A DNA stretch of 64,000 nucleotides from a virus: positions 1-64,000 of the IMG/VR virus record IMGVR_UViG_3300029813_000275. The stretch is one strand, 5' to 3'. The position numbers were made by a program, and so were the translations under genes. The notes under the pieces were generated by a model, which worked only from the letters and a program-made list of their open reading frames with translations, ran no database searches and was not told the DNA's origin. The stretch's first letter is position 1; each line of letters begins with the position of its first letter. Positions 27,575 through 64,000 of the stretch are shown one piece after another.

Positions 27575-27591
27575 GATTAAAATTTTTATTT

Positions 27592-27819: not shown

Positions 27820-27847
27820 GGTTTATAGTTTTAAATAGTTTATAATT

Positions 27848-28756: not shown

Positions 28757-30051
28757 TAAAAAGGCAAATCATTATAATTCATTAATTCCATTTGAAGCAT
28801 ACTTAACCTGTATGCATAAATTGCATCAAGCCCGCAATATTCTAATAGTTTTTCCTGGCCACCAGGCTGTTTCAATAATTCATAAATCCTATTCATATTA
28901 TTTCCACCCTTTGTTGTGGCCTGTAAATATGAGGTAATTTCACTTGCATAATCTACTATCCCAAAATTTACGTATGTCTGAAATTTTAAACCGGTAATAC
29001 CCGGTCGATTATCCAAAACATGAGCAGCTAACATGCTATCCCATATCCAGTTTTGAATTGGTTGTTGTAATTGTTTAACGCCCCACACCTCCTCAAATTT
29101 TATATTGTGTGCTATTTTACCGATGTTAGGATTAGCAAGTAAATCAATGAAAGGTTGTCGTGCTTTTCGACTTTTCGGCATCATAAACACAAAACATTTA
29201 TTTTCACTGATAGCCACAGCAGCACAAATAATCCGATGTCCTTTACTATGTGGTTTCAACCCGGTTGTTTCATAATCAATAGCAACTTTATCAATTTTAA
29301 TAATATGATCCCCATATTTACCTTGCAAAGCAGATAGAATAGATAAATCTTCAATCGTTTCAATATTTGGTTCTTGATATACTGGAAAATATTGATGTTC
29401 AGGAAAACGTTCATTTGTTTGTCTAATAGCACGTTCCAAATCCTGTATCCATACTGTTTCTACTTCTTTTTCCGAACGGCTTACATAGCTGGAATGAAAC
29501 ATTGGACAAATCCAGGTATTGAAATCCTGATCAGGTATTGCCCATCCCCGCCATTTCATTATCCCTCCTAAGTCTTTTTTCCAACGATGTGCCAATAAGC
29601 AATACAAAGCAGAATTTCCTAACAATACAATCACTTTTGGTCGGTATCGTTCAATTGTTTGTAATATATTTTTCCGGCAACAATCAATTTCATAATTATT
29701 TGGTGTTCGGTTAATTCCTTCCTTATCTATTGGACGGCAATTTACTGCATTAACATTTAAACAATCTTCAAATAAATCTATTCCTAATCTGCGATATGTT
29801 TTCTGAAGTAATCTACCAGTTTTACCTTGCCATGGTTTACCCCGTTTATCTTCAATCTCCCCCGGAGCTTCCCCGATGTTGAGAATGCCTTTTTTGAAAT
29901 TACCAAATGGTTTCATTTTTGGATTTAGTACATTTCTACATAATCCGCATGAAACGCAGGAATAAGTTTTGCCATCCGGGCGGAATTTTGATTCAGTTTG
30001 TTTTGTTGTAAAAAATCCTTGGTTCATAATGCTTTTTTCAAACGATACCAT
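28756..30051 (-). CDS. uracil-DNA glycosylase family-4 domain fused to PolA-type 3'-5' exonuclease domain
   Basis: N-terminus: CVSCGLC and GEAPGEIEDKRGKPWQGKTGRLL (UDG4 motif A), FHSSY (HPS-like motif B). C-terminus: VAIDYETTGL (Exo I DxE) and exonuclease-like remainder. Ends at the exo/pol domain boundary. Confidence 0.8.
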   Translation of the reverse strand: MVSFEKSIMNQGFFTTKQTESKFRPDGKTYSCVSCGLCRNVLNPKMKPFGNFKKGILNIGEAPGEIEDKRGKPWQGKTGRLLQKTYRRLGIDLFEDCLNVNAVNCRPIDKEGINRTPNNYEIDCCRKNILQTIERYRPKVIVLLGNSALYCLLAHRWKKDLGGIMKWRGWAIPDQDFNTWICPMFHSSYVSRSEKEVETVWIQDLERAIRQTNERFPEHQYFPVYQEPNIETIEDLSILSALQGKYGDHIIKIDKVAIDYETTGLKPHSKGHRIICAAVAISENKCFVFMMPKSRKARQPFIDLLANPNIGKIAHNIKFEEVWGVKQLQQPIQNWIWDSMLAAHVLDNRPGITGLKFQTYVNFGIVDYASEITSYLQATTKGGNNMNRIYELLKQPGGQEKLLEYCGLDAIYAYRLSMLQMELMNYNDLPF

Positions 30052-31586: not shown

Positions 31587-32663
31587 TTAAAAAAAACTAC
31601 TAATTTCTTTTCTTTTAAATGCCCAAGGCCATTCTGGCATGGATTTCTCCAAATCCAGAAAGTAAATAATATTCATTTCATCTCTGAGTTGGTATTTATT
31701 TGATATTCCTGGTTCTTTTATGATTTCCAGTTCTCTTTTACTTGTTTTGTTTTTTGGTTTCTTTTCAGCCCAACGTTCATTTATGGCTGGTTTATATGTT
31801 TGATCAACTTTTTTAAAGTCGGAATGTCCCAGTTTGTATCCTTTTTCGTGAATATAGTTGAGAAGAATTTGTTTATTAATTGGAGATAAAGTTTCAATAT
31901 GTTTTCCAGCCTCTTTAATGTTTGGATTTCGATTAGAAACTGTTATTTTCCAAGAATTCTCATCATAAATCCACCGTCCATTTTTGTACCGGGGAATAAA
32001 AATTGATCCCATCCTTCCAGTAATTACCCAAGAAGTACTATCCACACTATACCAGGGATAACGCAACATAATACTTAGAGCAGTTAATCCGAAACCATGC
32101 ACTTTCATTTTTGGGTATCCTTTTTGATCACACAAAAGATTAAGAAAAACAAAATCTAATTGTTTTATGATTTGTGTTTTCGATATTGTACCGCCTGCCA
32201 TTCCTCCCAACGCAATATAATCGTAACCACGGTTTAAATAACGTTTTAACCATTTTGGATCTTCGAAAGTAGTATGAAAAACTGGTAGTGGATGTAATCC
32301 GGCTTTCTCCATTATCATTTGATTTTTCCAAGTTTCTTTAGGACTACTAATCACATCTAAATTAGCATAAATATCAATTACATCCTTATGTTCTTTAATG
32401 AATGAAATGTAATCTTCAATGTTAATTTCTTTTCCTTGTGTCCAAGCAGAAAAAGCTCCTGAGTCAAGAAACAGTTCTACTTTTTTGTTTTTAGGCATGA
32501 TGTAATTGATTGTTCTAATCATTTCTATACTCTCCTTTTGATATCTTGGCATGTTCCACTCTTCAATTATGAAAAAATATGAAAGTAGGCGTCTTTTTCC
32601 TATAAGTAATACTTTTCTTTCTCTCTTATACGTTCCAGTAGCTCCAGCGAAATAAATGATCAT
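31587..32663 (-). CDS. dpdA: DpdA-type DNA transglycosylase (tRNA-guanine transglycosylase superfamily)
   Basis: [12 protein letters not shown] corresponds to the TGT catalytic DSGGFQ loop in its DpdA form; 358 aa; ATGA-coupled to folE and embedded in the que gene cluster. Confidence 0.7.
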
Positions 32664-33214
32664 TTTATCAGTTCCATTAATTCAATTCTGGCTTCAGACT
32701 TTTCCATGAAAGCTCCTTTCAAACTTGAAGTAGTCATTATAGAATGTTGTTTTGAAATTCCTCTCATTCTCATACACATATGAATTGCTTCAATAATACA
32801 GGCTGCTCCTAAAGGTTTCAAATATTTCATAAGAGCATACGTTACTTGTTCCCCGATTCGTTCTTGAATTTGTAAACGCCTTGCATAAATATCAACCAAT
32901 CGTGCCAATTTGGAAATGCCCACTACTTGTTTATCCGGAATGTAAGCAACATGAGCTTTTCCAAAAAATGGTAACATATGATGTTCACACATTGAGAAAA
33001 GTTCAATATCTTTGAGCAGCACAATTTGATCATAACCATCAGAATTGAAAGTTGTGGTTAATACATCTGCTGGACTTTTCTTATAACCGGTGTATAACTC
33101 AGTCCAAGAGCATATTATTCGTTTTGGGGTGTCTAATAAGCCCTCTCTGTTTGGATTCTCTCCAATATACTTTATCTGATTAATAAGATTTTGTTTAATT
33201 TCTTTTTCTTTCAT
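32660..33214 (-). CDS. folE: GTP cyclohydrolase I
   Basis: [21 protein letters not shown]....[24 protein letters not shown] is the FolE signature. Start placed at the ATG that forms an ATGA overlap with the queC stop; the ORF is also open to 33241. Confidence 0.9.
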
Positions 33215-33726
33215 ATCATAAGTTTTTGTCTTTCTCGACAATTAGAACAGTCACAATTATGCCAATTGTCATTATTTTTATAACAATTATAAAAATCAGT
33301 ATTATTTCTATTAAGTAAGAACTGAAAGCATTTTCTTTTAGTCCATCCAACAATTGGTAGTTTAACTTTAATTTTAAGAAGATGTCCATAAATTTTCAAA
33401 GTTAACCAATTTGCATCCCCCCATTTGTCAAACAAAGGAAGAATCCAACGAGTTCCTAAATAGATTTCATCATATCCTCGTATTTGTATTTGATTAATAA
33501 AGTGAAAGTTTCTTCCAGGTATATCATCCCAACCAGGCATTTTAATAGTAAAAAAATTAACTGTTTGGTGTAAACTACAAAGTTTCTTGGCTTTCTCTTG
33601 TTCTTTACTTTTGTAACTTTGATTATAATCCACAAAAAAAGCATCAAAACTTACTCCACGTTCAATTAGCTGACAAAACACAACTGCACTATCAAATCCA
33701 CCAGATAATAAAAGAGCCTTTTTCAT
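33211..33726 (-). CDS. queC: compact QueC-like PP-loop enzyme (7-cyano-7-deazaguanine synthase family; DpdL-type alternative not excluded)
   Basis: [14 protein letters not shown] (SGGxDS), VDYNQ (DYGQ-like), IPGRN, C-terminal NCY...C.C..CRER zinc-type cysteines; only 171 aa versus about 220-230 for typical QueC. Confidence 0.7.
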
Positions 33727-34067
33727 TTCTTTTTTTTAAGTGTAAAAGTAAACAGTGGATATAATGGTTGCCAAGACATTTTACCACTATGTGTGAACAT
33801 ATCAAGTATTACATGTACCAAAACTCCACTTGATAGTTCCGGTTTAACTAACCACAATACAATTATCAATAACATTGAGTGTGACACTCGATACATTATC
33901 AATTCCACTTTGGATAAGGAATTTGCATTAAAAGATTTTCCTGTCTTTCGTATTTTGATTTCATTCCAAACAAGTGGTAAGTCCGGAATAACTGCACCTA
34001 CAAAAAATCCTAAACCAAGTTGAGTAGCTCCTATTACACCGGACAGTAAATGCCATTTAAAATGCAT
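33723..34067 (-). CDS. small polytopic membrane protein, YdjM/DUF457-like putative metal-dependent hydrolase
   Basis: 114 aa; 3 hydrophobic helices; His/Asp positions (HFKWH, PDLP, SHS, HVILDMFTH) resemble the membrane-bound YdjM family; weak. Confidence 0.35.
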   Translation of the reverse strand: MHFKWHLLSGVIGATQLGLGFFVGAVIPDLPLVWNEIKIRKTGKSFNANSLSKVELIMYRVSHSMLLIIVLWLVKPELSSGVLVHVILDMFTHSGKMSWQPLYPLFTFTLKKKK

Positions 34068-34069
34068 CT

Positions 34070-34840
34070 TTATTTACTTTTAGCTATTGCAGGCAGTGCT
34101 TTGCCTTTTGACCATTGGCGTGTCCAACTGATAATAGTTGTTTTCTTTACCCGCCCATCAACTATTTTAAGTAGTTTTTCACAATCAGTTTCTCCATTTT
34201 TCCATGCAAAATAAACCAAAGCTTTATTTGATTTGGAGTAGTCTTTCACATCAGGAGATTTCTCCTTTTCAGTTTTTTCAAACTTTTCTTCTTTGACTTG
34301 TTTCGATTCTTCTCTTAGCACACCCAACATGACCATCCGAAGCTCTTTTGTGGTTTTGTACCTACTCAATTGTCCGCGAATTCCTTTGAACTCATCATTG
34401 CTTTTAGCAATATCCCGCAGGTCTTTCAATCTTTCTGCGGATTTGACTTCAGAAAATAAATCATCTCCTTCCTGTTTTTCTTCCTCTGTTTGGACTTCTT
34501 CAGCTTCTTCAAACTTTCCTTCAGTAGGATCCTCAAGTTCCTCAGAATCTTTCAATATCCCGAGTTCCTGAAAAACCTGGAGTACCGGTATTTTTATTTT
34601 TCCATCCCCGACAATTCCTTTCTTCCCCAACTCATCTTCGGAATTAACAAACAACTCCTGGAGAACTTTAAAGGTTTCATCTGTTAATTCATCATCTGGT
34701 GTAAGAAACAAAGCAGCTTCTTTTACCAACGTCTCCAATTCATCAGGTGGCACTTTTGTATCAACTGCAGGTTCAAATTCACCAATCAATTGAAGTTCTT
34801 CTGCTGCTGTGATTAACAGCGCTGTTTTAATTTTTGTCAT
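34070..34840 (-). CDS. highly acidic protein with basic C-terminal domain
   Basis: 256 aa; the N-terminal two thirds are very rich in D/E; the C-terminus is K/R-rich (...WTRQWSKGKALPAIAKSK); preceded by TTTGTATAAT motif. Confidence 0.55.
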   Translation of the reverse strand: MTKIKTALLITAAEELQLIGEFEPAVDTKVPPDELETLVKEAALFLTPDDELTDETFKVLQELFVNSEDELGKKGIVGDGKIKIPVLQVFQELGILKDSEELEDPTEGKFEEAEEVQTEEEKQEGDDLFSEVKSAERLKDLRDIAKSNDEFKGIRGQLSRYKTTKELRMVMLGVLREESKQVKEEKFEKTEKEKSPDVKDYSKSNKALVYFAWKNGETDCEKLLKIVDGRVKKTTIISWTRQWSKGKALPAIAKSK

Positions 34841-34876
34841 GATTTTTTTGATTTTTGATTAACATTTATTATTATT

Positions 34877-34886
34877 ATTATACAAA
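34877..34886 (-). promoter_or_regulatory. promoter-like motif TTTGTATAAT (copy 3)
   Basis: Minus strand GAAAAATAATTTGTATAATAATAA; 37 nt upstream of ATG at 34840. Confidence 0.5.
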
Positions 34887-34900
34887 TTATTTTTCAATTA

Positions 34901-35665
34901 TTATACTCCAATTTTATTATTCCATAAAACTATGTGTTCTCTAAGACCGAATCGCACATTTTCTTGTACTGCTAATTTAACAATAGCAGGACTATTTTTT
35001 AATATCTCTTTTCTGGTTCTGCCTTGCGGCATCAAAATTATTTGTTCTTTTAAGATATATCCGGGTGCTATAAAATCAGTTTCTATTTCTTTCCAATCTT
35101 TTTTCCAACAAATAACAAACTTGAACCATGCATTATTTTGACAAGATAATAGTTTGAGAACTGCTGGTTTGTATCTTGTAGAATACAAATTTCCAGAGTT
35201 TGAAAGTTTAGGTGAATTGTTCCATTGATCTACCATGCAGAACATATCCCAGTGGGGTAGTATTATACATTCATTTTCAAGTTCAATAAAAGGCTTAAAT
35301 TTATAATATGTAACGAATGCCTGCAAAAATTTAATGAGCCGGGTTTGTTGTTTTAAAGGACTTCCTCCTGTAATAACCAAATGTTGTCCATTATAAAGTT
35401 TTTCTGCTAAACCAACCTGATCCATTAATTCAAATAATTCTGTAAATGTATATGAACTACCATATTTTCTAATAACTTTGGTATCACACCATTTACAGTT
35501 TAAAATACAACCCTGTAATCGTAAGAATGTCGCAGGATATCCAGTAGTTATTCCTTCACCTTGTATTGTATCATAAAAAAGTTCCGAAACATCAAGATAT
35601 AGTTTCTCCCCTTCAGGAATAGTTTTTGTACAAGCTGGATTTGCTTTAATTAATTGTTTCATCAT
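34901..35665 (-). CDS. queE: 7-carboxy-7-deazaguanine synthase (radical SAM)
   Basis: LFYDTIQGEGITTGYPATFLRLQGCILNCKWCDT is the QueE signature (E.F.SiQGEG..G.p..F.R..GC.L.C.wCDT). Confidence 0.85.
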   Translation of the reverse strand: MMKQLIKANPACTKTIPEGEKLYLDVSELFYDTIQGEGITTGYPATFLRLQGCILNCKWCDTKVIRKYGSSYTFTELFELMDQVGLAEKLYNGQHLVITGGSPLKQQTRLIKFLQAFVTYYKFKPFIELENECIILPHWDMFCMVDQWNNSPKLSNSGNLYSTRYKPAVLKLLSCQNNAWFKFVICWKKDWKEIETDFIAPGYILKEQIILMPQGRTRKEILKNSPAIVKLAVQENVRFGLREHIVLWNNKIGV

Positions 35666-51754: not shown

Positions 51755-51925
51755 ATGAAAACAATTGAATTAGGACAGAAAGTAAAAGGAAAAGTAAATG
51801 AGAAAAATGAATTACCGGAGGATCAATGGATTGATGAACAGCTGTTGGAATGGATGAATGATGGTATTTTGACTGAATCAAAATCAATTGATGGTGGAGG
51901 ATTTAGAAATCATCCGGGATCATGA
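51755..51925 (+). CDS. hypothetical 56-aa protein (below ORF-track cutoff)
   Basis: MKTIELGQKVKGKVNEKNELPEDQWIDEQLLEWMNDGILTESKSIDGGGFRNHPGS; ATGA overlap with next ORF. Confidence 0.4.
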   Translation: MKTIELGQKVKGKVNEKNELPEDQWIDEQLLEWMNDGILTESKSIDGGGFRNHPGS

Positions 51926-52149
51926 CAGTATTTGAATTTCGATATAATTGGTGTATTTATGAATGTGGAATGATAACTGTCAGTTTGCATAAAACAAGTA
52001 AAGGAGCTATTAAAGCAATGGAGAAACATAAAACGCAAAAGAAAAAAGAATGGGAGAAAACGTATTCTGATGAACCGGGGATGAAAAAAGATTTTCCATT
52101 TGCTATGCATGAATATTGGGATGTAATTGAAACTGAAGTATTGGAATAA
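51922..52149 (+). CDS. hypothetical protein
   Basis: 75-aa ORF in late array. Confidence 0.5.
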   Translation: MTVFEFRYNWCIYECGMITVSLHKTSKGAIKAMEKHKTQKKKEWEKTYSDEPGMKKDFPFAMHEYWDVIETEVLE

Positions 52150-52158
52150 ATTTGTAAT

Positions 52159-53880: not shown

Positions 53881-55278
53881 ATGCCTGATAAAAACAAAAT
53901 AAGTGGAAATACAATACAAGTATTGAGCGCATTGGTATCACGTGCTGTACTTGCAGGGAGACTTGGACAACAATTTGGCGGTGACCGGGATATGTATCAG
54001 GCACTGGGTTATCCGCTTATAATTGAGTATAAAGATTATTTTGCACGGTATACCCGGCAGGATATAGCAAAGGCAATTATTGACCGCCCTGTAAAAGTTA
54101 CATGGCGGGGGGATGTGGAAATTATTGAATCGGATGATGATAAAGAAACAGCTTTGGAAAAGGCATGGAAAGAATTGGATGAGGCATTGGGATTGAAATC
54201 ACGATTTGTACGATTGGATAAATTATCAGGTATTGGTACATATGGGATATTGTTATTGGGATTGGATGATGTAAAAAATAAAGAAGATTTTATAAAGCCA
54301 GTGTTTGGAGGCCAAAGGAAATTATTATATGTAAAACCGTTCGGGCAGGATAATGCAACAATCACTGCATGGGAATCCGATACAAATAATCCACGGTATG
54401 CACAACCTGTTAAATATGATATTGTGATAACTGATTCAGGTTCTAATGTCAGTTCCCAGATTAGCGTACATCATAGCAGGGTTATTCATGTGGCAGATGA
54501 GATATTGGAAAATGAAACAGAAGGAGCCCCCCGATTAGAATGTGTGTATAATCGTTTAATGGATTTGGAAAAAGTGGTTGGTGGTGATGCTGAAATGTTT
54601 TGGCGAAGTGCGCGTCCGGGATTTGAAGGAAAAGTAGATAAGGATTTTCAGATGACCCCGAAGATGATAGAAGATTTAAAAGAACAATTGGATGAGTATG
54701 AACATAATCTTCGCCGGTTTCTCATAAATGAAGGGGTTGATATAAACGCATTGATACAACAAATTGCCGATCCGAAAAATCATGTTGATATACAAATACA
54801 AATGATTGCAGCAGTAAAAGGTATTCCGAAACGGATACTTACAGGCAGTGAGCGTGGAGAATTGTCAAGCAGTCAGGATAAAGAGGAGTGGATGTCGTTT
54901 GTTCAATTACGGCGTGAGGAGTATGCTGAACCAAAAATAATACGGCCGTTTGTTGACCGTTGTATTGAATATAAGGTATTACCAAAGCCTGCGGAATCAT
55001 ATTCGGTCAAATGGCAGGATTTGTTTGCACCAAGTGAGAAAGAACGTGTTGAAATTGGTAAAGGGCGTTCTACGGCGTTGAAGGAATATTCGATGAATCC
55101 GATGGCAGAATCCATTGTACCACCTGAAGCATTCCTGAAATGGTTTCTTGGCCTGGATAAAGATGTCGTTAAAATGATAGAAAAAATGAGGGATGCAGTC
55201 ATGTTGGAAGAACAACAACAACAGGCAACAGAAGAAGAAGAACAAATAATTGAAGAAGAACAAATAGAACAAGGATAA
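53881..55278 (+). CDS. portal protein (DUF1073-like)
   Basis: 465 aa; size, position before the Mu-F-like gene, N-terminal ...LGYPLIIEYKDYFARYTRQDIAKAIIDRPV... pattern, and acidic Q/E-rich C-terminus. Confidence 0.8.
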   Translation: MPDKNKISGNTIQVLSALVSRAVLAGRLGQQFGGDRDMYQALGYPLIIEYKDYFARYTRQDIAKAIIDRPVKVTWRGDVEIIESDDDKETALEKAWKELDEALGLKSRFVRLDKLSGIGTYGILLLGLDDVKNKEDFIKPVFGGQRKLLYVKPFGQDNATITAWESDTNNPRYAQPVKYDIVITDSGSNVSSQISVHHSRVIHVADEILENETEGAPRLECVYNRLMDLEKVVGGDAEMFWRSARPGFEGKVDKDFQMTPKMIEDLKEQLDEYEHNLRRFLINEGVDINALIQQIADPKNHVDIQIQMIAAVKGIPKRILTGSERGELSSSQDKEEWMSFVQLRREEYAEPKIIRPFVDRCIEYKVLPKPAESYSVKWQDLFAPSEKERVEIGKGRSTALKEYSMNPMAESIVPPEAFLKWFLGLDKDVVKMIEKMRDAVMLEEQQQQATEEEEQIIEEEQIEQG

Positions 55279-55280
55279 TT

Positions 55281-56237
55281 ATGTTTCATAGTTTATTAAA
55301 TAGTAGAGTAATATCAATTCATGATCATTCAATTACGGTTTACAATAACTATGATCCAACCCGGACAACTGTATTACGAAATGCTTTTGCAAGGGAAATG
55401 AATCGTAGATTCCGGCAATTGACGCAGGTGATACGTCGGGCGGTGGTTGAGGAGGATTGTTTTGGATTGCAACCGGGTTTTTATCAGTTGGCTTCACCCG
55501 GCAGGCAGGCATTTGCTTTTCCACGTAGTGCAGATAAAGTAAGTGGATTTATGACATGGCTACAAGGACAAGTTGATCGTGGTATTCTGGAAATACGGGA
55601 ATTGGCACAGGTTGGTGTTGGTGTAGAAGGGGCATGGACAAATAAATATGTGTTTGATTCGTATAAACGGGGCGTAATCCGGGCACGTTATGAGTTGCAG
55701 AAAGCCGGGTTTGATGTACCAACAATTCAACAGACTGGTGGAATAGAAATTAGTATGTCCACGCCGTTTCATCTGGATCGGTTGGGATTATTATATACAC
55801 GGGTTTATAGCGGGTTAAAAGGTATAACAGCAGCAATGGATACTCAAATCAGCCGGATATTGGCGCAAGGGATTGCTGATGGTGATGGCCCACGGTTACT
55901 TGCCCGGAAAATGATCGGCACTATTAATGGAGCGGGGATGGGTGATTTAGCCATTACTGATACATTGGGTAGATTCATACCGGCCCAACGGCGTGCTACA
56001 ATGCTGGCACGCACAGAAATAATTCGGGCACATCACCAAGCTACTATTCAGGAATATCGTAACTGGGCTGTTGAAGAAGTGATAGTAAAAGCAGAATGGA
56101 TGTCAGCGGGTGACGACCGGGCGTGTAATCGTTGTTTGGATAGGGATGGAAGTAAATTTACATTAGATCAGATTGAAAAAGAAATACCGTTGCATCCAAA
56201 TTGCCGGTGTTGTGCTTTGCCTTATAAAATGAAATAA
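55281..56237 (+). CDS. Mu F-like / SPP1 gp7-like minor head (head morphogenesis) protein
   Basis: ...RTEIIRAHHQATIQEY...WMSAGDDRACNRC..DG......PLHPNCRCC, canonical Phage_Mu_F C-terminal signature. Confidence 0.85.
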   Translation: MFHSLLNSRVISIHDHSITVYNNYDPTRTTVLRNAFAREMNRRFRQLTQVIRRAVVEEDCFGLQPGFYQLASPGRQAFAFPRSADKVSGFMTWLQGQVDRGILEIRELAQVGVGVEGAWTNKYVFDSYKRGVIRARYELQKAGFDVPTIQQTGGIEISMSTPFHLDRLGLLYTRVYSGLKGITAAMDTQISRILAQGIADGDGPRLLARKMIGTINGAGMGDLAITDTLGRFIPAQRRATMLARTEIIRAHHQATIQEYRNWAVEEVIVKAEWMSAGDDRACNRCLDRDGSKFTLDQIEKEIPLHPNCRCCALPYKMK

Positions 56238-56382: not shown

Positions 56383-56868
56383 ATGCCTTGGACAATAACA
56401 GATGTGGAGCGTCATAAGCATGGATTAACCGATGCTCAAAAGCGACAATGGGTACGAATAGCCAATTCAGCACTTGCAAAATGTCAAAGAGAAGGAGGAC
56501 GTAATTGTGAGGCTTCCGCTATCCGGCAGGCTAATGGAGTTGTGGGACATAGTATTTCTTTTGAGAATACACAGAAAACAATTGAAAAATTAATTACTTA
56601 TGTAGATGCCGGACATGGAGAACCCATTGAAGATTGGGAATATTTAATTCATCATGTTGAAGTGGTTGAGGGTGAGGAAGAATTGCATCATTGTTTTTTA
56701 TTAGATCATCTTGGAAACAAATATGAAATTGATCATATAACAGATGAAGAAGGCGATCAACGGCATTATATTGTGGGATTAGTAGAGGATCAGGATGTAT
56801 ATTGGAGTGATCAGGAGGCAATTGAAGATGGGCAAGATGTTCCTTGTCCAGCAAGACAATTAGGATAA
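56383..56868 (+). CDS. ChaB-like N-terminal domain protein with acidic C-terminus
   Basis: Start at MPWTITDVERHKHGLTDAQKRQWVRIANSALAKC....EASAIRQANGVV, resembling the ChaB fold pattern; the upstream part of the 56317 ORF overlaps the small peptide gene. Confidence 0.4.
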   Translation: MPWTITDVERHKHGLTDAQKRQWVRIANSALAKCQREGGRNCEASAIRQANGVVGHSISFENTQKTIEKLITYVDAGHGEPIEDWEYLIHHVEVVEGEEELHHCFLLDHLGNKYEIDHITDEEGDQRHYIVGLVEDQDVYWSDQEAIEDGQDVPCPARQLG

Positions 56869-56869
56869 A

Positions 56870-57631
56870 ATGAGAACACCAGCAAAAATAGGATCGTTTT
56901 ATTTCACAATAGGTAGAGAATCAGAATTCTCTAAAAAGGATTTTTTACAGATTCTTAATTCTGCTATTGAGGATATAGTAAATAGTTGTACGCATCCTGG
57001 AATTTTATTATCAGGTGGGGTAGATAGTTCATTATTAGCAATAATTGCTACAAAATATTGTCTTAATATTCCTTGTTTTGTTGTAGGGGACAATATTATG
57101 AATCCGGATGTGCAGGCTGCAATGCAATTGGCAGAGGAAAAAAAATTGAATTTATATGTTCATCTTCTTAATCCGACAGAAATATCACGTATTCAAAAGG
57201 AAACAAAAGCAATTTATTCTAATATTTATGAAGGAGATGATTGTGTATTTGCTGCTTTAGAATTTGCTTCCCCATTTGTTACCGATTTAATTGCCACGGA
57301 TGGAATTGATGAATTGATGGGCGGATACTGGGGGCATCGGGACAGAAAAAGGTTTCCTGATATAAAAGATGCTTTTAAACATTTTTGGGATGAATTGGAA
57401 GAAAAACATTTAACTCCGATGAATAGATCAGCTGAATGCCACGGCTTGGATCTTATTTTTATATACTTACTGCCTGAAATTATTGAACAGCTTTCAAGAA
57501 TCTCATTAAAAAATCGAATCAGAGAAAATGTTAGTAAAGCCGTTTGGAAAGAGATTGCTCTGATGGCAGGAGTGCCTTCATGGATTATAGAAAGAAAAAA
57601 ACAAGGATTTGTTGATGCTTTTAAAGAATAA
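56870..57631 (+). CDS. asparagine synthase-like PP-loop ATP pyrophosphatase lacking a glutaminase domain
   Basis: HPGILLSGGVDSSLLAIIA (AsnB SGGLDSS signature) and TDGIDELMGGYW (AsnB GEG.DE.fgGY motif); only 253 aa, no N-terminal Ntn Cys. Confidence 0.7.
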   Translation: MRTPAKIGSFYFTIGRESEFSKKDFLQILNSAIEDIVNSCTHPGILLSGGVDSSLLAIIATKYCLNIPCFVVGDNIMNPDVQAAMQLAEEKKLNLYVHLLNPTEISRIQKETKAIYSNIYEGDDCVFAALEFASPFVTDLIATDGIDELMGGYWGHRDRKRFPDIKDAFKHFWDELEEKHLTPMNRSAECHGLDLIFIYLLPEIIEQLSRISLKNRIRENVSKAVWKEIALMAGVPSWIIERKKQGFVDAFKE

Positions 57632-57636
57632 ATAAT

Positions 57637-59178
57637 ATGTCATATTTGGAAAAAGTACTTTTTGGGATTAATAAAAGGAAAAAAGGAGAATCTTGTATTT
57701 TCATCAGAGAAGTACAAATCAACGAGAATTATACTATTCGTAATGAAATGCATCAAGGCAGGAAACATATCGTAGTACCCGTTGTAATGATGGTAGAAGG
57801 TGTGCATAAAGGAAGTGCAGGGCATTTACTACATTTAGCAGAAGATTTAGGGCGATTTCCAGAAGCATGGAATGGTATTCCGGTTACTATTCAGCACCCG
57901 GAAGAGGATGGACATAATGTTTCCGCTAATTCACCTGATTTGATTGACGCCCAAACAATAGGACGAATTTATAACACTCATATGGATGAAGGGAAGTTGA
58001 AGGCTGAAGCATGGTTAGATGAAGAACGATTGCGGGAGCAAAGCGCTATTGCATTAGCAGCAATACAACAACAACGTGTGTTGGAAGTGAGTGTTGGGGT
58101 GTTTACTGAGGAAGAAAACGTTCCAGGCATTTGGAATGGAGAGCAATATGAAGCCATAGCTAGAAACCATCGCCCAGATCATTTGGCATTATTGCCTGGT
58201 GGGAAAGGGGCTTGTTCATGGGAAGATGGTTGTGGAATTCGATTAAATAAGAAAGGAGGTAACAGTGTGAAAAAGACAGATGATGAATTAATTATTGATG
58301 ATAAGAAATTATCAGAGATAATGAAAAGTCTGAATAATGAAAATTTGGCAGTTATTCCAATTAATGTAAATGAACAGGGATTGAGATCACTTGTCAGTAC
58401 TATTCAGGCAAAACTTGATGTCATGGATTCAGATACTAAAGTACATTTCTTACAGGAGGTGTATGAAGATTTTTTTGTCTATGAAATCAGGGGAAGAAGT
58501 GAAGGTTCTGTATTATATAAACGAACATATCAGGTAAATACTGATGAGTCTGTTGAATTTACTGGAGAACCGGTTGAAGTCAGACGTAAAATAGAATACG
58601 TCACAATGGAAAGTTCTGGATTGACCAGAACGAAATTTAATAATTTAAAGAAAGGAGTAGTAACAATGAGTGAAAAAAAAGAAGGCGCTCCCTGTAAAGT
58701 AACTGAACTTATCAATCACAAGTTGACAAAGTTCACTGAAGATAACAGAGAGTGGCTGGAAACTTTGGAAGAAGGTCAATTGGATACATTATTTCCAAAT
58801 GAACCGGAAGCCAAAAAAGAGGATCCTCCGCAAATAAATGCGGAGCAAGTAAAACAGGTGGTAAGGGAATTATTTTCCAAACAGGAAGAATATATTGACC
58901 TGATGCCTGAAAATATGCGAGATTCAACGCGTGCTGGATTAAAACTTCATAAAGAACAGCGCGAAAAGATGATTAAGGGAGTTCTTGATAACGTAAAAGA
59001 CGTTTGGACTGAGGATGAACTGAAATCAATGGATGCAAATACTTTAAATAAAGTATTTAATTCAATAAAAAAAGAGGAAATAACTGATTATTCCTTACTT
59101 GGTACGGGTGTTTCGGGCGGAAAAGGACAAACACCTTTATATCCGGGCGGAATAGAAATTGAAGAAACTAAAAAATAA
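57637..59178 (+). CDS. DUF2213-type prohead protease/scaffold fusion protein
   Basis: N-terminal HIVVPVVMM.EGV....LH.AE.L.....WNGIPVTIQHP...SVGVF.....PG.WNGEQYEAIARNHRPDHLALLP.GKGACS matches DUF2213; C-terminal half is charged/coiled (scaffold-like); directly upstream of decoration and capsid genes. Confidence 0.65.
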   Translation: MSYLEKVLFGINKRKKGESCIFIREVQINENYTIRNEMHQGRKHIVVPVVMMVEGVHKGSAGHLLHLAEDLGRFPEAWNGIPVTIQHPEEDGHNVSANSPDLIDAQTIGRIYNTHMDEGKLKAEAWLDEERLREQSAIALAAIQQQRVLEVSVGVFTEEENVPGIWNGEQYEAIARNHRPDHLALLPGGKGACSWEDGCGIRLNKKGGNSVKKTDDELIIDDKKLSEIMKSLNNENLAVIPINVNEQGLRSLVSTIQAKLDVMDSDTKVHFLQEVYEDFFVYEIRGRSEGSVLYKRTYQVNTDESVEFTGEPVEVRRKIEYVTMESSGLTRTKFNNLKKGVVTMSEKKEGAPCKVTELINHKLTKFTEDNREWLETLEEGQLDTLFPNEPEAKKEDPPQINAEQVKQVVRELFSKQEEYIDLMPENMRDSTRAGLKLHKEQREKMIKGVLDNVKDVWTEDELKSMDANTLNKVFNSIKKEEITDYSLLGTGVSGGKGQTPLYPGGIEIEETKK

Positions 59179-59195: not shown

Positions 59196-59705
59196 ATGGC
59201 TAATACAATTAAGTTAAAAAAATACTTGGATATTATTGAAGAATATGGTGCTGAAGCCGCAATAACTCCAGGTATGTTGCTTGAACTTAACAGTAGTGGT
59301 AATGTTCAAGTACATTCAACAGCGGGAGGTAATGTCCTTCCGATGTTTGCTCTTGAAGATGAGCTCCAAGGCAATGATATTGATGATGCTTATGTTGCCG
59401 ATGATAAAGTACAGGTGTGGGTTGCTGTTCGGGGGGAATGGGTGTATGCTATTTTAGCAGATGGACAAAATGTCAGCGTCGGTGATTTTCTTGAATCGGC
59501 AGGCAGCGGTCTTCTCCAAAAACATGAACCTGATGAATATAATGAGAGCGCATCAATCGGAGGTATTTATACTAACCAGATCGTTGGTGTTGCACTTGAA
59601 GCTATGGATTTATCTACTTCGAGTGGAGAAGAGTCCAGTTTAGGGCTTGGATCAAGTATCGAAACCGTTGGATATAACAGACGTATTAAAATAAGAATTA
59701 AATAA
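59196..59705 (+). CDS. head decoration protein (DUF2190-like)
   Basis: 169 aa; strong SD AAGGAGG; ...ITPGMLLELNSSGNVQVHS....P.FALED.......V.VWVA.RGEWVYAIL...VSVGDFLESAGSG pattern; position just before the MCP. Confidence 0.55.
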   Translation: MANTIKLKKYLDIIEEYGAEAAITPGMLLELNSSGNVQVHSTAGGNVLPMFALEDELQGNDIDDAYVADDKVQVWVAVRGEWVYAILADGQNVSVGDFLESAGSGLLQKHEPDEYNESASIGGIYTNQIVGVALEAMDLSTSSGEESSLGLGSSIETVGYNRRIKIRIK

Positions 59706-59727: not shown

Positions 59728-60828
59728 ATGGAAAATGTACAAGTTGATTTATTAGGAATAAACGGACAAGTTCAGGGTGATGTGGCAGCCCAGTTATTGG
59801 GTAATGAAATAAGCCTTGGTACTATGCGCCCATTTATAGGGGATGATGGTAGGGCTTATGTTACTATATACAATGGGGGTGATCAAAAAAACCCAGCCAG
59901 TTATGTGACAAATCCTATCAATACTAATGCAACACTTCGCAGGGATGAATGGAAATTGTTGGATGATGCTTTATTGGAAGTTTCCCGGCAAAGACTCGGT
60001 GGAGTTCAGGATTTGATTGATAAAGGTTTAGTTTATAATCTTGGCAATGCAATGGGAACGACCGTACTCGAATGGCATGATGTGAGTGATGCAATGGAAG
60101 CTGTTGTTACAATGGATGGAGTGACAAGGGCTGCGGGTGACCGCCCGGTATTTAAACATAATTATTTGCCGATTCCAATTATCCATAGTGATTATGAGAT
60201 TAATGCACGTGTATTGGCTGCAAGCCGGAGTTTAGGGAATCCTTTGGATACGACTTCTGCTGAAAGAGCTGCCCGTAGGGTAAATGAAAAACTGGAAGCC
60301 ATGTTATTTACTAACACGACTTACAGTTTTGGTGAAAAAGATGATCGTAATCTTAACACTATTTATAGTTATATTAATCATCCGGATCGTAGCCAGGTTG
60401 CTTTAACCGGGGCATGGACAGGATTAACAGGTGCACAAATAGTTGCGGATGTTTTGACTAATATGGTACAAACAAGTATTGATGCGCTTCATTATGGGCC
60501 TTGGATGTTGTATATTCCAACAGCTTATCAAACAGTGATAGATGCAGATTATGTTGTTGCAGCTCCGCAAAATACGATTCGTGAACGTATTTTGAAGATT
60601 GCTGGTATTACCGGGATTAAAACAATAGATACATTGCCTGATGGTAATGTTTTATTGGTTCAAATGACCAGTGACGTTGTTCGTTTGGTACGTGGTATGG
60701 GTCTTCAGAGTGTTGAATGGCAAACTGAAGGAAAATTCATAACCAAATATAAGGTACTTACTATTCAGGTTCCTCAGATTCGTTCTGATCAGAATTTAAA
60801 AAGTGGTATTGTTCATGGTTCTGCTTAA
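59728..60828 (+). CDS. major capsid protein (HK97 fold, encapsulin/linocin-M18-like family)
   Basis: 366 aa; strong SD AAAGGAGG; ...NATLRRDEWKLLDDALLEVSRQRLGGVQDLIDKGLVYNLGNAMGTTVLEW..VSD... pattern of encapsulin-like capsid proteins. Confidence 0.85.
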   Translation: MENVQVDLLGINGQVQGDVAAQLLGNEISLGTMRPFIGDDGRAYVTIYNGGDQKNPASYVTNPINTNATLRRDEWKLLDDALLEVSRQRLGGVQDLIDKGLVYNLGNAMGTTVLEWHDVSDAMEAVVTMDGVTRAAGDRPVFKHNYLPIPIIHSDYEINARVLAASRSLGNPLDTTSAERAARRVNEKLEAMLFTNTTYSFGEKDDRNLNTIYSYINHPDRSQVALTGAWTGLTGAQIVADVLTNMVQTSIDALHYGPWMLYIPTAYQTVIDADYVVAAPQNTIRERILKIAGITGIKTIDTLPDGNVLLVQMTSDVVRLVRGMGLQSVEWQTEGKFITKYKVLTIQVPQIRSDQNLKSGIVHGSA

Positions 60829-60872: not shown

Positions 60873-61235
60873 ATGGAACGTACAAAAACAACTGATAATA
60901 CAGTATCTGAAAAAATCAGATGGAAAAAAATTGGTGGCGGATCCCTTCGGTTATTAATCGATGGAAAACGGCGTATAATTAAGCCTAATGAGAAGTTCAC
61001 GGCCACCCCAGATGAAGTGCCACAGGCATTTCGGGATGTAGTTGTGCCTTTGGATACTATTCCCGGAACTCCACCAACCCCTGTAATAACAACGGGAGTT
61101 CAAACTGTTTATGTAGCAAAGCCACGAGGAAAAAGTGGAGATTGGGACGTAGTGGATCCAAATGGAAAAGTTCTTAACGAAAAAGCTCTTAAAAAAGAAG
61201 TAGCTGATAAGTTGATTGAAGATTTAGCAAAGTGA
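60873..61235 (+). CDS. hypothetical protein
   Basis: 120-aa ORF; overlaps start of next gene. Confidence 0.55.
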   Translation: MERTKTTDNTVSEKIRWKKIGGGSLRLLIDGKRRIIKPNEKFTATPDEVPQAFRDVVVPLDTIPGTPPTPVITTGVQTVYVAKPRGKSGDWDVVDPNGKVLNEKALKKEVADKLIEDLAK

Positions 61236-61930
61236 TTTGGAAGGTCCCTCGCATATGGGAAGGGGGAGATGTATGGATAATGGGAGGAGGGCCCTCAGTA
61301 CCAAAGCAGTTCGATATTCCCGATCGGGTTGTTCAGAATGTAGTTAAAGGCGCTTTTTCTCCTGCTGCATACTCTCCTTATATGTCTGCACTTCATGATA
61401 AGCATGTAATTGGTATTAATGTAGCTTATTTGATTGGGGATTGGATAGATATGGTATTTTTTGGTGATAAAGGATTCTTTTTGAAGCACCAACTTGCGTT
61501 ATCTAAATTTCCAGGATTAAAAGTTTCCTGCTATCCCGGAGCAAATGACTTGAATTGGGTTAAATACGTTGTACGGGATAAAAAGCATTCACGGGGTATA
61601 AGTTCAGATTCAAGAACAGTCAGTTGGAATGGTAATTCAGGAGCTGCTGCAATCAGTGTAGCTGCACATGCCGGGGCGAAGCGGATTATATTGTTGGGAT
61701 TTGATATGAAAGTGGGTGAAAAGGATATACAACACTGGCATGATTTATATGGACGTTTTGCAGCTAAAGATCCAAGGAAAAGAAAACGCATGGCATTTTA
61801 CAAGCATCTGGCGGGTTTTCCACAAATTGCTAAAGATGCAAAACACATGGGTATTGAAATTTTGAATGCCTGCTCTGATAGTGCAATTGAATGTTTAAGA
61901 AAAGTAACTGTTAAAGAAATTTTACAATGA
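61232..61930 (+). CDS. MptE/DUF115-like protein (putative nucleotide-sugar transferase of the Maf/sialyltransferase-like class)
   Basis: GTG start; VWIMGGGPSV....VIGINVAY.......D....NGNSGAAAISVAAHAGAKRIILLGFDM......HW pattern resembles DUF115. Confidence 0.4.
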   Translation: MIWKVPRIWEGGDVWIMGGGPSVPKQFDIPDRVVQNVVKGAFSPAAYSPYMSALHDKHVIGINVAYLIGDWIDMVFFGDKGFFLKHQLALSKFPGLKVSCYPGANDLNWVKYVVRDKKHSRGISSDSRTVSWNGNSGAAAISVAAHAGAKRIILLGFDMKVGEKDIQHWHDLYGRFAAKDPRKRKRMAFYKHLAGFPQIAKDAKHMGIEILNACSDSAIECLRKVTVKEILQ

Positions 61931-63096
61931 AACAAATAGGAGTTGGGGAATTAATTTTAGGTAAAGAAGAAAAGAAATTGCTAAATCAGGTGATTAATAG
62001 TAATCGACTGTCCTATGGAAAATTTACAAAGAAATTTGAGGAATTATTTGCTAATGAACATGATTCAAAATACGGCGTTTTTTGCAATAGTGGAACTTCT
62101 GCTTTATATATGGCTTTAGCTGCATTGAAAGAAAAATATCAGTGGAAAAGACATGATGAAATTATTGTTCCTGCCACTACTTTTGTTGCTACAATTAATA
62201 TAATATTGCTCAATGATTTAATTCCAGTATTGGTGGATGTGGATAAAGAAACATATAATATTAATACAAAATTAATTGAGAATAAGATAACAAAAAGAAC
62301 AAAAGGAATTATTCCAGTTCATTTATTTGGATTACCAGCGGATATGGATTCAATTCTTGAAATTGCAAAATGTAATAATCTGAAAGTAATTGAAGATTCT
62401 TGTGAATGCATGTTTGCAAAATATAAGAATAAAAAAGTAGGTTCATTTGGCGAGATAGGATGTTTTTCTACTTATGTTGCCCATTTTTTGGTAACTGGGA
62501 TTGGAGGATTTTGTATTTCTGATGATGAGGAAATTATAAAAATACTTAGGAGTCTGATGAATCATGGAAGAGATTCAATATATATTACAATTGATGACGA
62601 TAAAAATATTCCTATTAAGAAACTGCAAGAAGTAATTGCCAAACGATTTAATTTTACTCGCGTCGGATTTAATTTTAAAGCAACTGAATTGGAGGCAGCA
62701 ATTGGTTTAGGACAATTCAAACAAAGAAATAAAATAATCAGTCGCCGTAAGGAAATAGCACATAAATTTATACAAGGATTGAAAAGATTAAATGTTCATA
62801 TGCAATCACCTTGTATCCCAAATGATCGAGATCATAATTTTATGATGTTTCCAATTGTATTGAAAACAATATGTAAAGAAAATTTAATAAGATTTCTTGA
62901 AAAAAATGATATTGAAACCAGGGATATGCTACCTCTTCTTGATCAACCTGCATATAAAGGGATGTTTAATATTGAAGATTTTCCTGTTTCACAATGGATT
63001 AAGAAATATGGGTTTTATATAGGTTGTCATCAATATATTACAGACGGTGAGGTGAAATATATCATTGAAAAATTTTATGAATTTTTTAGAAAATGA
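61927..63096 (+). CDS. DegT/DnrJ/EryC1-family PLP/PMP enzyme with His in place of the Schiff-base Lys (ColD-type sugar 3-dehydratase signature)
   Basis: 389 aa; NSGTSALYMAL, IPVHLFG, DSCE. At the F-S-x-x-x-x-K position the sequence is CFSTYVAHFLVTGIGG (His186). Downstream ...DDEEIIKILRSLMNHGR. Confidence 0.7.
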   Translation: MKQIGVGELILGKEEKKLLNQVINSNRLSYGKFTKKFEELFANEHDSKYGVFCNSGTSALYMALAALKEKYQWKRHDEIIVPATTFVATINIILLNDLIPVLVDVDKETYNINTKLIENKITKRTKGIIPVHLFGLPADMDSILEIAKCNNLKVIEDSCECMFAKYKNKKVGSFGEIGCFSTYVAHFLVTGIGGFCISDDEEIIKILRSLMNHGRDSIYITIDDDKNIPIKKLQEVIAKRFNFTRVGFNFKATELEAAIGLGQFKQRNKIISRRKEIAHKFIQGLKRLNVHMQSPCIPNDRDHNFMMFPIVLKTICKENLIRFLEKNDIETRDMLPLLDQPAYKGMFNIEDFPVSQWIKKYGFYIGCHQYITDGEVKYIIEKFYEFFRK

Positions 63097-64000
63097 AGAA
63101 AGCATTAATTACGGGTATTACAGGGCAAGATGGATCATATCTTGCTGAACTTTTGTTGAAAAAAGAATATGAAGTTCATGGATTAGTAAGAAGAACTTCT
63201 CAGGATAATCATCATAATATTAGGCATTTTGAAAATGATGTAAAATTTCATTGTGGAGATATGACAGATTCAGTAAGTATTAATAATATTGTTGCAAAAG
63301 TTATGCCTGATGAAATCTACAATTTTGCAGCCATGAGTCAAGTGAGAGTTTCATATGATTCTCCTGTTTCTACATTTGATATTAATACTTTAGGGTTTCT
63401 AAGAGTGATAGAAGCGGTGAGAAGAATAAAACCTGATACTAAATTGTACCAAGCCTGTTCTTCTGAAATGTTCGGTAAAGTACAGGAGACGCCTCAAACT
63501 GAAATAACCTCATTTTATCCACGATCGCCGTATGGAGCCAGTAAAGCTGCCGCCTTTTATTTAGGGCGCGCTTATCGTGAAGGATACGGGTTAAAAATTT
63601 ATAATGGAATTTTATTTAATCATGAATCACCTCGCAGAGGAGATACTTTTTTAAGTCAAAAAGTTGTAAAAGCCGCTGTAAAAATTAAAAAAGGTTTACA
63701 AGATAAATTAACACTTGGGAATCTTGATGCTAAACGGGATTGGGGGTATGCTAAAGAATACATGGAATGGGTTTATAAAATTGTACAGGAAGAACCAAAT
63801 GATTATTTGATTTGCACAGGAGAAACACATTCAGTAAGAGAATGGGTTGAATTAACTTTTAAACTTTTAGGATTAGACTGGAAAAAATATGTGGATTTTG
63901 ATGAAAATTTAAAACGACCGGCAGAAGTTGATATTTTGTTGGGGGATTTTTCCAAGTCAAAAAATGATTTAGGATTTAATCCACAAGTGAAATTTAAAGA
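63093..64000 (+). CDS. gmd: GDP-mannose 4,6-dehydratase (3' end cut by window edge)
   Basis: Not in ORF track (no stop in window). Translation: MKKALITGITGQDGSYLAELLLKKEYEVHGLVRRTS...YNFAAMSQV...CSSEMFGKVQETPQTE...PRSPYGASKAAAFY...ILFNHESPRRG, classic Gmd motifs. ATGA overlap with the preceding gene. Confidence 0.92.
   Translation, partial: MKKALITGITGQDGSYLAELLLKKEYEVHGLVRRTSQDNHHNIRHFENDVKFHCGDMTDSVSINNIVAKVMPDEIYNFAAMSQVRVSYDSPVSTFDINTLGFLRVIEAVRRIKPDTKLYQACSSEMFGKVQETPQTEITSFYPRSPYGASKAAAFYLGRAYREGYGLKIYNGILFNHESPRRGDTFLSQKVVKAAVKIKKGLQDKLTLGNLDAKRDWGYAKEYMEWVYKIVQEEPNDYLICTGETHSVREWVELTFKLLGLDWKKYVDFDENLKRPAEVDILLGDFSKSKNDLGFNPQVKFK

Follow-up and report, generated by a model that had tools for sequence, protein, structure and literature searches.

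Asparagine synthetase-like (AS-like) enzymes act on the C-termini of ribosomal peptides, where PesC forms a nitrile, FzmA a hydrazide (on a C-terminal Arg) and TsrC/ScdTA an amide (PMC13060819, PMC13622209). These enzymes are full-length proteins with a glutaminase domain (accompanied by an RRE in FzmA) and use glutamine-type donors. Lasso-peptide cyclases (McjC type), beta-lactam synthetase and carbapenam synthetase also have the AsnB fold and convert an acyl-adenylate into an intramolecular amide without glutamine, while retaining a vestigial N-terminal domain. For phage heads, domains fused to MuF or to the portal protein are taken as effectors that are packaged in the head and delivered with the DNA (PMC5512222; PMC5576092). 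Here we analyse AsnL, an AsnB-type synthetase domain without any such N-terminal domain. It is encoded among the head genes of a virus (IMG/VR record IMGVR_UViG_3300029813_000275, positions 1 to 64,000; this stretch of 64,000 nucleotides is referred to as the window), next to a His/Cys-rich partner domain, HHdom. AsnL and HHdom are one functional two-gene cassette: with one possible exception, neither gene was found without the other beside it. The two diversify in parallel and move between phage genomes as a unit of 1.07 kb.

The enzyme superfamily is already known. New are the minimal architecture of AsnL, its HHdom partner, the occurrence as a cassette in the head module and the sharing between phages and Patescibacteria. 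A first-pass annotation of the window had stated that none of the roles it proposed is known to have been described for a phage head-module gene. Our literature search agrees, as it found no published description of an AS-type gene in a phage head module, nor of HHdom.

AsnL is a synthetase domain without a glutaminase domain

AsnL matches the Pfam family Asn_synthase (PF00733) with E=3.9e-18 and 66.7 bits (cut-off 21). Its two signature motifs are located at residues 44-57 (G-I-L-L-S-G-G-V-D-S-S-L-L-A) and 142-154 (A-T-D-G-I-D-E-L-M-G-G-Y-W). The NCBIfam model asn_synth_AEB covers AsnL only at model positions 233-377 of 517, with the N-terminal glutaminase part outside the match, and the score against TIGR01536, the equivalog of glutamine-hydrolysing AsnB/ASNS, is 62.7 bits and thus below the cut-off of 267. 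The start of AsnL corresponds to approximately residue 205-230 of AsnB/ASNS, and the N-terminal Ntn glutaminase domain with Cys-1 is missing. As the profile alignment extends over residues 231-473 of the 560 residues of human ASNS, AsnL lacks not only the glutaminase domain but also the last ~85 residues.

A structural model computed with AlphaFold2 from 32 homologues has a predicted local distance difference test score (pLDDT) of 94. It fits the C-terminal domains of human ASNS, E. coli AsnB, CarA and beta-lactam synthetase with query-normalised template-modelling (TM) scores of 0.67-0.80. Foldseek returned 9b6c, 1ct9 and 8sue with E ~1e-9 and query-normalised TM scores of 0.74-0.80, and CarA was the best match in the PDB when the single AsnL sequence was used (E=1.6e-5). 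Profiles, model and ASNS alignment all confirm what had been read from the sequence in the first-pass annotation, namely a stand-alone AsnB-type synthetase of 253 residues which has both motifs, no glutaminase domain and a short C-terminus.

AsnL shares with AsnB and the C-terminal domain of human ASNS (PF00733) the fold (TM 0.74-0.80), the PP-loop SGGxDS, the motifs (S/T)G(E/D)GxDE and GGY..H, and the catalytic Lys. Residues T143-D144-G145-I146-D147-E148 and K244 align with the SGEGSDE motif and the catalytic Lys of AsnB/ASNS (K449 in E. coli, K466 in human). In the 32 homologues, with sequence identities down to 28%, the invariant residues are S48, G49, G50, D52, S53, D80, G145-I-D-E148, G151-G-Y153, H156, K223, R242, K244 and G246. 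Because PP-loop, DGIDE motif and catalytic Lys are intact and invariant, AsnL is, judged by its sequence, a functional adenylating member of the AS superfamily. It falls outside the definition of the glutamine-hydrolysing asparagine synthetases. The first-pass annotation had left room for a lack of ATP-binding residues on closer alignment, but these residues proved to be intact.

Differences are found in the synthetase site. In human ASNS an acidic pocket holds the amino group of the substrate, Lys-466 is essential, and Asp-400 and Arg-403 are named residues of the synthetase site (PMC6748925). According to the alignment, AsnL keeps the acidic pocket (D144/D147/E148), whereas Asp-400 is replaced by H180, which is invariant, and Arg-403 by P183, which is conserved to at least 90%.

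At E<1e-30, the AsnL family comprises ~146 representatives of clusters formed at 50% identity, nearly all with a length of 230-295 residues. The dN/dS ratio of AsnL against three relatives (0.22-0.31) indicates purifying selection. No Pfam domain was found on the N-terminal extensions of the rare longer proteins P0060, P0058 and P0055. When 50,697 deposited phage genomes were searched by tblastn, neither AsnL nor its partner protein gave a match. The AsnL profile also retrieved a protein of 494 residues (P0192) in which an AsnL-like domain is naturally fused to a Dph6-type diphthamide-synthase PP-loop domain (PF01902), which belongs to a family amidating a protein-bound carboxylate.

HHdom is a His/Cys-rich partner domain

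Unlike AsnB and ASNS, AsnL needs, or at least accompanies, a separate His/Cys-rich protein. This became evident upon clustering of the genes that neighbour AsnL, in 19 and then in 30 loci, almost all of which had a homologous gene beside AsnL. In the window, the partner domain HHdom reads EDWEYLIHHVEVVEGEEELHHCFLLDHLGNKYEIDHITDEEGDQRHYIVGLVEDQDVYWSDQEAIEDGQDVPCPARQLG, with the motif EDWEYLIHH...ELHHC...DHLGN...H...VYWSDQEA...VPCPARQLG-stop. Over 60 aligned sequences one Tyr, five His and one Cys are invariant (Y87, H90, H91, H102, H103, C104 and H128 in the numbering of P0202), while no Asp, Glu or Lys is. The structural model consists of a small beta-sheet and a short helix, with pLDDT ~85-95 in the domain. 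The C-terminal tail is poorly ordered, and the last two pLDDT blocks (77 and 55) point to its flexibility. In sum, HHdom is a small, uncharacterised domain built around a beta-sheet; seven of its Tyr/His/Cys positions are invariant, and it may bind metal. In every case seen, fusions included, it forms the extreme C-terminus of its protein.

Four subtypes can be distinguished. The phage type (subtype 1) has the tail ...PCxxRQL followed by 0-4 residues, and a second phage type (subtype 2; L005, L086) has no tail. Subtype 3 is the Patescibacteria type, encoded upstream of AsnL. Subtype 4 is the more Cys-rich 'HC' type (LFHHIHH..VHHCGGAH..HCxCGKH..CPxGGWHxESG), which is mostly encoded downstream.

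HHdom matched no known family in Pfam (E<=10), NCBIfam, PHROGs, PADLOC, the PDB sequence profiles or in a Foldseek search against the PDB. The top Foldseek hits, to cyanase, have a TM score of 0.16 and are meaningless. The 172 database relatives carry no Pfam domain; the best 120 that were listed are all unnamed or hypothetical except for one labelled YjaZ, and many relatives come from Patescibacteria. A remnant of the AsnB glutaminase domain was considered and rejected, since hhalign against 54 full-length AsnB sequences gave a probability of 0.1%.

AsnL and HHdom form a mobile cassette

HHdom adjoins AsnL in all phage loci and in all but one of the cellular loci with readable flanks, L174 being the sole such locus that shows no HHdom. 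When the search was reversed and started from HHdom, AsnL was found immediately downstream in 16 of 16 viral contigs. A rough neighbour-joining tree of AsnL divides exactly by HHdom subtype, and both genes are under purifying selection (dN/dS 0.11-0.31 across the AsnL and HHdom genes). A fusion of AsnL with HHdom was not found among the loci examined. The first-pass annotation had rightly seen a stand-alone AsnB-fold domain, but by treating AsnL as a lone enzyme it overlooked the HHdom half of a conserved two-gene cassette.

Mobility is evident from nucleotide comparisons. In the head region, phage locus L006 matches the window only at 56626-57694 (88% nucleotide identity) and in a small upstream ORF (open reading frame; 51922-52150); outside this region there are three short matches at 15-18 kb. 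For L172, the sole match in the stretch compared is 56620-57692 (76% identity). The flanking head genes in L006 and L172 belong to the PF04860 portal, Peptidase_S78 and PF05065 capsid families, those in the window to PF06381, DUF2213 and DUF6260. The helical N-terminal part of the partner protein (75 residues) falls outside the mobile cassette. At the other end, an N-terminal helix of the downstream gene (MSYLEKVLFGINKRKKGES) is found on different downstream proteins, namely DUF2213 in the window, Peptidase_S78 in L172 and a 113-residue ORF in L006.

More generally, the gene after AsnL opens with a similar amphipathic helix that ends in Lys/Arg, either M(S/T)YLEKV..GI(N/D)KRK or MLS..WI..RIE.RK. 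Such starts occur in the window (57637-57693), L006 (8289-8345), L172 (~4887-4940), L091 (10728-), L010 (2561-) and L089 (~9177-), and the helix is kept whatever protein comes next (DUF2213, Peptidase_S78, S78_2 or the 113-residue ORF). In several lineages, the ATG of the downstream gene lies within the codons for the conserved GFVDA of AsnL.

AsnL also occurs in 12 species-representative genomes, 8 of which carry the label of Patescibacteria or of one of its candidate phyla (Uhr-, Portnoy-, Sacchari- and Shapirobacteria, Parcubacteria). There, the pair has housekeeping neighbours (SerRS, a class-II Asp/Asn/Lys tRNA synthetase, SecA, TIM, PGK, RecA, FtsH and PolA). These loci do not share a third conserved gene, and LOG/SLOG genes are present in two loci only. 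Genes of this 'lysine decarboxylase' family follow AsnL-HHdom in L176 (1313-2128; Patescibacteria label) and L178 (9024-9821; Gammaproteobacteria label).

The tight pairing could mean that AsnL and HHdom are two subunits of one enzyme which acts on a third molecule. HHdom would then be a metal-binding accessory in place of the missing N-terminal domain, and it could supply ammonia or a thiol/persulfide of its invariant Cys as nucleophile. In phages, HHdom would anchor the enzyme at portal/MuF for packaging and injection. Small molecules would be candidates for the acyl substrate, for instance a signalling molecule, a cell-wall precursor or aspartate. With HHdom usually encoded before AsnL, the gene order mimics that of the N- and C-terminal domains in AsnB, and the HHdom invariants, all of them His, Cys or Tyr, fit a metal or catalytic site better than a carboxylate substrate. 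The retained acidic pocket of AsnL, the housekeeping contexts in Patescibacteria and the literature paradigm of MuF/portal fusions (PMC5512222) fit as well. However, HHdom is unlike the AsnB N-terminal domain in the hhalign comparison, and the gene order is reversed in loci with the HC type. Moreover, HHdom is readily fused to structural proteins, yet no fusion with AsnL was found, and its constant C-terminal placement is left unexplained. We consider a two-subunit enzyme rather unlikely, although it is the main rival of the reading that we favour below.

The cassette is inserted into unrelated head modules

In phages, the cassette follows the portal and/or MuF gene and precedes the protease/scaffold and capsid genes. 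This is the case in the window, L004, L006, L007, L089/90, L091 and L172, and the same order is found in L005, L008, L013 and L086, where the upstream portal is inferred from size and position. The phage cassette loci cover at least three unrelated sets of head proteins. In a contig of 316 kb from a jumbo phage (L001), the pair is located among replication genes, with no head genes nearby.

HHdom proteins occur in several forms. They may be free-standing (~100-130 residues), may have the helical N-terminal domain of 75 residues (window, L007, L008), or HHdom may form the end of a larger protein (L004, L005, L009, L086, L194, L196). The L004 protein is a portal+Mu-F fusion verified by Pfam and represents the only verified lineage; the N-terminal parts of the L005 and L196 fusions gave no match in a phmmer comparison with verified portals; for L005, the name 'portal' refers to size and position. 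HHdom is therefore physically tethered to portal/MuF in one lineage, and position suggests the same for further lineages.

This placement resembles that of portal- or MuF-fused effectors (MuF polymorphic toxins, polyvalent proteins), as HHdom is likewise C-terminal on a portal+MuF protein or encoded directly after MuF. HHdom might accordingly be a toxic effector delivered from the head, for example a small, metal-dependent and nuclease-like His/Cys domain, and AsnL its enzymatic antidote or activator, comparable to type VII toxin-antitoxin pairs or to the immunity genes encoded after MuF-toxin fusions. The pair is a mobile two-gene module that occurs in either order, at scattered chromosomal sites and in phages. 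In addition, the C-terminus of portal+MuF is the toxin-domain site of MuF polymorphic toxins, with the next gene following immediately (PMC5576092, PMC5512222). On the other hand, HHdom could not be assigned to any described family of effectors or toxins, PADLOC gave no match, and no likeness to HNH or His-Cys-box nucleases was detected. Its companion is an ATP-dependent enzyme rather than a small immunity protein, and immunity proteins are seldom ATP-dependent enzymes. The strong conservation amid core genes of Patescibacteria would also be unusual for a toxin-antitoxin module, and we regard this explanation as improbable.

The gene order is also relevant to the proposal, made in the first-pass annotation, that AsnL amidates or cross-links by isopeptide bonds a major head protein (capsid, decoration, scaffold or protease). 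The site directly upstream of prohead protease/scaffold and capsid recurs in at least ten phage lineages, the N-terminal KRK helix of the downstream gene moves along with the cassette, and an enzyme gene followed by a protease gene recalls the logic of lasso-peptide cyclases and their leader proteases. But capsid, protease and portal come from at least three unrelated Pfam families, and therefore no common head-protein substrate is evident. The pair persists without nearby head genes in the jumbo-phage contig and in Patescibacteria. The comparison with lasso cyclases that had been recommended gave scores far below the cut-offs (NF033535, 11.4 bits versus 525; NF033561, 11.7 bits versus 300). 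Of the B protease, RRE and leader peptide that lasso systems require, none was recognised among those neighbours of AsnL that were scanned or had a Pfam label. Modification of a major head protein is very unlikely in our estimate.

HHdom as the candidate substrate of AsnL

As AsnL is paired with HHdom, the likeliest substrate is a different one from those previously named. What can be kept is the broad notion that a head protein undergoes ATP-dependent amide chemistry, with the substrate moved to the co-encoded HHdom protein. The reading that we tentatively favour, while giving it somewhat less than an even chance, is that AsnL, as a maturase, uses ATP to modify the free carboxylate at the C-terminus of the HHdom protein inside the head. 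HHdom would be a module inside the head, tethered to portal/MuF and perhaps delivered into the host with the DNA. With ATP, AsnL would turn one of the carboxylates of the HHdom protein into an acyl-adenylate, which an amine would then resolve. The likeliest target would be the free C-terminal alpha-carboxylate, which might be converted to a C-terminal amide with free ammonia or to a nitrile- or lactam-type product. The chemistry of AS enzymes requires a carboxylate. As HHdom lacks an invariant acidic side chain, its C-terminus would be the only universally available target. A C-terminal target would also explain why HHdom is never internal and why its phage-type tail is conserved yet flexible.

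The likeness to TsrC/ScdTA, PesC and FzmA consists in the AS-type adenylation chemistry, which for AsnL is a predicted activity only, and in the polypeptide encoded beside the enzyme. A sister subfamily of AsnL (see below) likewise has short peptides with an invariant ...CHGCR end as its neighbours. The candidate substrate of AsnL differs from theirs, being a folded domain of ~85 residues that is often carried on a virion protein.

Several observations weigh against HHdom maturation. The known peptide-modifying AS-like enzymes retain their N-terminal domain, which AsnL does not have. A single recognition mode is not evident, because 0-4 variable extra residues follow the RQL motif of HHdom and the C-termini of three subtypes (L005/L086, the Patescibacteria type encoded upstream, and HC) are quite unlike. 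The pocket that holds the alpha-amino group of aspartate in ASNS is kept in AsnL, and a small amino acid is thus possible as substrate. The housekeeping setting in Patescibacteria might reflect a function in the cell that has no connection with virions. Finally, the absence of AsnL-HHdom fusions suits an enzyme-substrate pair, yet it is also compatible with a loose heterodimer.

As a variant of HHdom maturation, AsnL might be an ATP-dependent protein ligase or maturase on a virion protein, activating the C-terminus of portal/MuF-tethered HHdom; to this we assign only a low probability. By one route, the HHdom C-terminus would be joined covalently to an amine of another head component, with the Lys-rich N-terminal helix of the protease/scaffold as candidate acceptor. 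By the other, HHdom would become, through its modification, an effector for packaging and injection.

Gene neighbourhood in the window

The features of the window are listed in Table 1. AsnL had been described as lying amid head-morphogenesis genes with spacers of 1-5 nucleotides, and the Pfam and PHROGs assignments of the neighbours agree. The stop of the upstream gene (56868) and the ATG of AsnL (56870) are separated by 1 nucleotide, and the stop of AsnL (57631) and the next ATG (57637) by 5 nucleotides. The name 'ChaB-like' for the upstream gene could not be confirmed: residues 1-75 have no match to ChaB (PF06150) or any other Pfam family even at E<=1, and Foldseek gives only a hint to 1SG7 (E=3.6, TM 0.25/0.46). 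The nearest cultured relative by capsid is Brevundimonas phage MaInes (38% identity), in which the cassette is absent.

Table 1. Features of the window, by position
Feature	Position	Strand	Basis or remark
Family-A DNA polymerase domain protein, 464 aa	25505-26896	-	replication module, 25505-30051
PAPS-reductase/PP-loop protein	27851-28756	-	replication module, between polymerase and exonuclease genes
UDG-superfamily + 3'-5' exonuclease fusion	28759-30051	-	replication module
Deazaguanine-type cluster	31590-35665	-	
FolE	32663-33241	-	deazaguanine-type cluster
QueC-like protein, 171 aa	33214-33726	-	deazaguanine-type cluster
QueE-like radical-SAM protein	34904-35665	-	deazaguanine-type cluster
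Portal (PF06381)	53881-55278	+	Pfam, PHROGs
Mu-F-like minor head protein	55281-56237	+	Pfam, PHROGs
Helical N-terminal part (75 aa) of partner protein	56383..56607	+	only in window, L007 and L008 among loci examined
HHdom, ~85-aa His/Cys-rich C-terminal domain/half of upstream ('ChaB-like') gene	56608-56865	+	neighbour clustering, alignments
Mobile cassette, 1.07 kb (HHdom, AsnL, first ~19 codons of next gene)	56620..57692	+	nucleotide comparison
AsnL, glutaminase-less AsnB-type synthetase domain, 253 aa	56870..57631	+	ATG start; Pfam, NCBIfam, model, alignments
AsnL residues: PP-loop S48-G-G-V-D-S53; T143-D-G-I-D-E148; H156; K223; R242/K244/G246			
Conserved N-terminal helix MSYLEKVLFGINKRKKGES of downstream protease/scaffold gene	57637..57693	+	travels with cassette
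DUF2213 protease/scaffold	57637-59178	+	Pfam, PHROGs
Head decoration protein	59196-59705	+	Pfam, PHROGs
Major capsid protein (DUF6260)	59728-60828	+	Pfam, PHROGs
MptE/sialyltransferase-like glycosyltransferase	61232-61930	+	glycan genes, 61232-64000
DegT aminotransferase	61927-63096	+	glycan genes
NAD-epimerase/dehydratase homologue		+	glycan genes

Glycan genes are found near the head genes in ~4 of the 7 annotated phage loci (window, L004, L089, L091), whereas no glycosyltransferase is encoded within 10 kb of the cassette in L001, L005 and L086. This is an association without explanation, which suggests virion glycosylation in AsnL phages. In L089 (3202-4323; 12160-17056), a UDP-GlcNAc 2-epimerase-type gene lies between TerS and TerL. 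L091 (2371-8976) codes for a protein of 1497 residues with several glycosyltransferase domains and a B12-radical-SAM domain, and L004 (19205-20236) has a sugar-pathway gene beside the head genes.

In the deazaguanine-type cluster of the window, the QueC-like protein is oddly truncated, as it matches only the first ~60 of the 210 QueC model positions, and the ORFs of 358, 114 and 256 residues around these genes are possibly DpdA or QueD candidates.

The first-pass annotation had linked AsnL to these genes. It proposed amidation of a sugar acid from the nearby glycan cluster, or amidation at the deazaguanine base, which would be the conversion of CDG (7-carboxy-7-deazaguanine) to amido-deazaguanine. 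Ammonia-dependent Asn synthesis that boosts the Asn supply may be added to this group. Both gene clusters are indeed present in the window, and the acidic pocket of ASNS is kept in AsnL, but a link of either cluster to AsnL is not favoured. Besides the patchy occurrence of glycan genes, the score of AsnL against WbuX/PseA (TIGR03573) is 19.9 bits and thus far below the cut-off of 203. The deazaguanine genes are 23 kb away on the opposite strand, while the cassette is shared (76-88% nucleotide identity) with phages that have otherwise unlike head genes. The comparison with QueC that had been asked for gave no Pfam QueC match at E<=0.01, and the family profile A1 ranks the QueC structure 3bl5 only 25th (E=0.0069). 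A role in Asn supply is at odds with the replacement of Asp-400 and Arg-403. None of the three explains the HHdom partner, the portal/MuF fusions or the mobility of the cassette, and we give them a very small likelihood. Even taken together, the capsid cross-linking, sugar-acid and deazaguanine proposals are unlikely, because none accounts for the HHdom partnership, the occurrence in Patescibacteria and the mobility of the cassette.

Some further genes were encountered. In the replication module of the window, the family-A polymerase domain protein has only 464 residues and, together with the separate exonuclease, may represent a split polymerase. Upstream of the head module, L004 (2879-5235) carries a trio of NMN adenylyltransferase-like (CTP_transf_like), Nudix and NAMPT genes, which presumably resembles phage NAD+ reconstitution pathways. 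In L001 (20357-20741), approximately 10 kb from the cassette, there is a Pfam match to Acb1, the anti-CBASS 2H phosphoesterase.

A sister subfamily in a peptide gene cluster

Relatives of AsnL at ~143-155 bits constitute a sister subfamily which is encoded within a conserved cluster. This contains a radical SAM/SPASM protein (the nearest model being the ACGX system) and a peptide of 50 residues with the invariant C-terminus C.QCS.CHGCR. Also encoded are an alpha/alpha-toroid (LanC/prenyltransferase-like) protein, a TPR/metallo-beta-lactamase giant (~800-1085 residues), a protein of ~172 residues and a GT4 glycosyltransferase. Examples are L103 (2295-6013) and L106 (1556-9180), and the cluster also occurs in L098, L100-L102 and L113. 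It looks like an undescribed class of peptides that are made by ribosomes and modified after translation (RiPPs). CHGCR-type peptides are also encoded beside HHdom and AsnL in phages L001 and L091, while the window has no Cys-rich peptide of the type ...C.QCS.CH.CR.

Implications

AS-like enzymes are emerging as versatile rewriters of peptide C-termini, with amides, nitriles, hydrazides and lactams as products. The cassette would extend this chemistry to an enzyme that consists of the synthetase domain only, to a folded and probably metal-binding domain without known relatives, and to the interior of the virus particle. By swapping between unrelated head modules and landing between portal/MuF and protease/scaffold, it provides a clean example of an accessory head function, and the HHdom family with more than 170 members gains its first functional handle. 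If HHdom were joined to another head component, the phage head would contain an isopeptide link of the ubiquitin or Pup kind, made by an enzyme. If it were converted to an effector, this would be the RiPP-style maturation of a viral structural protein, common to phages and Patescibacteria. Either a covalent link inside the head or a modified injected effector would, if true, add a new principle to how phages assemble or take over their hosts.

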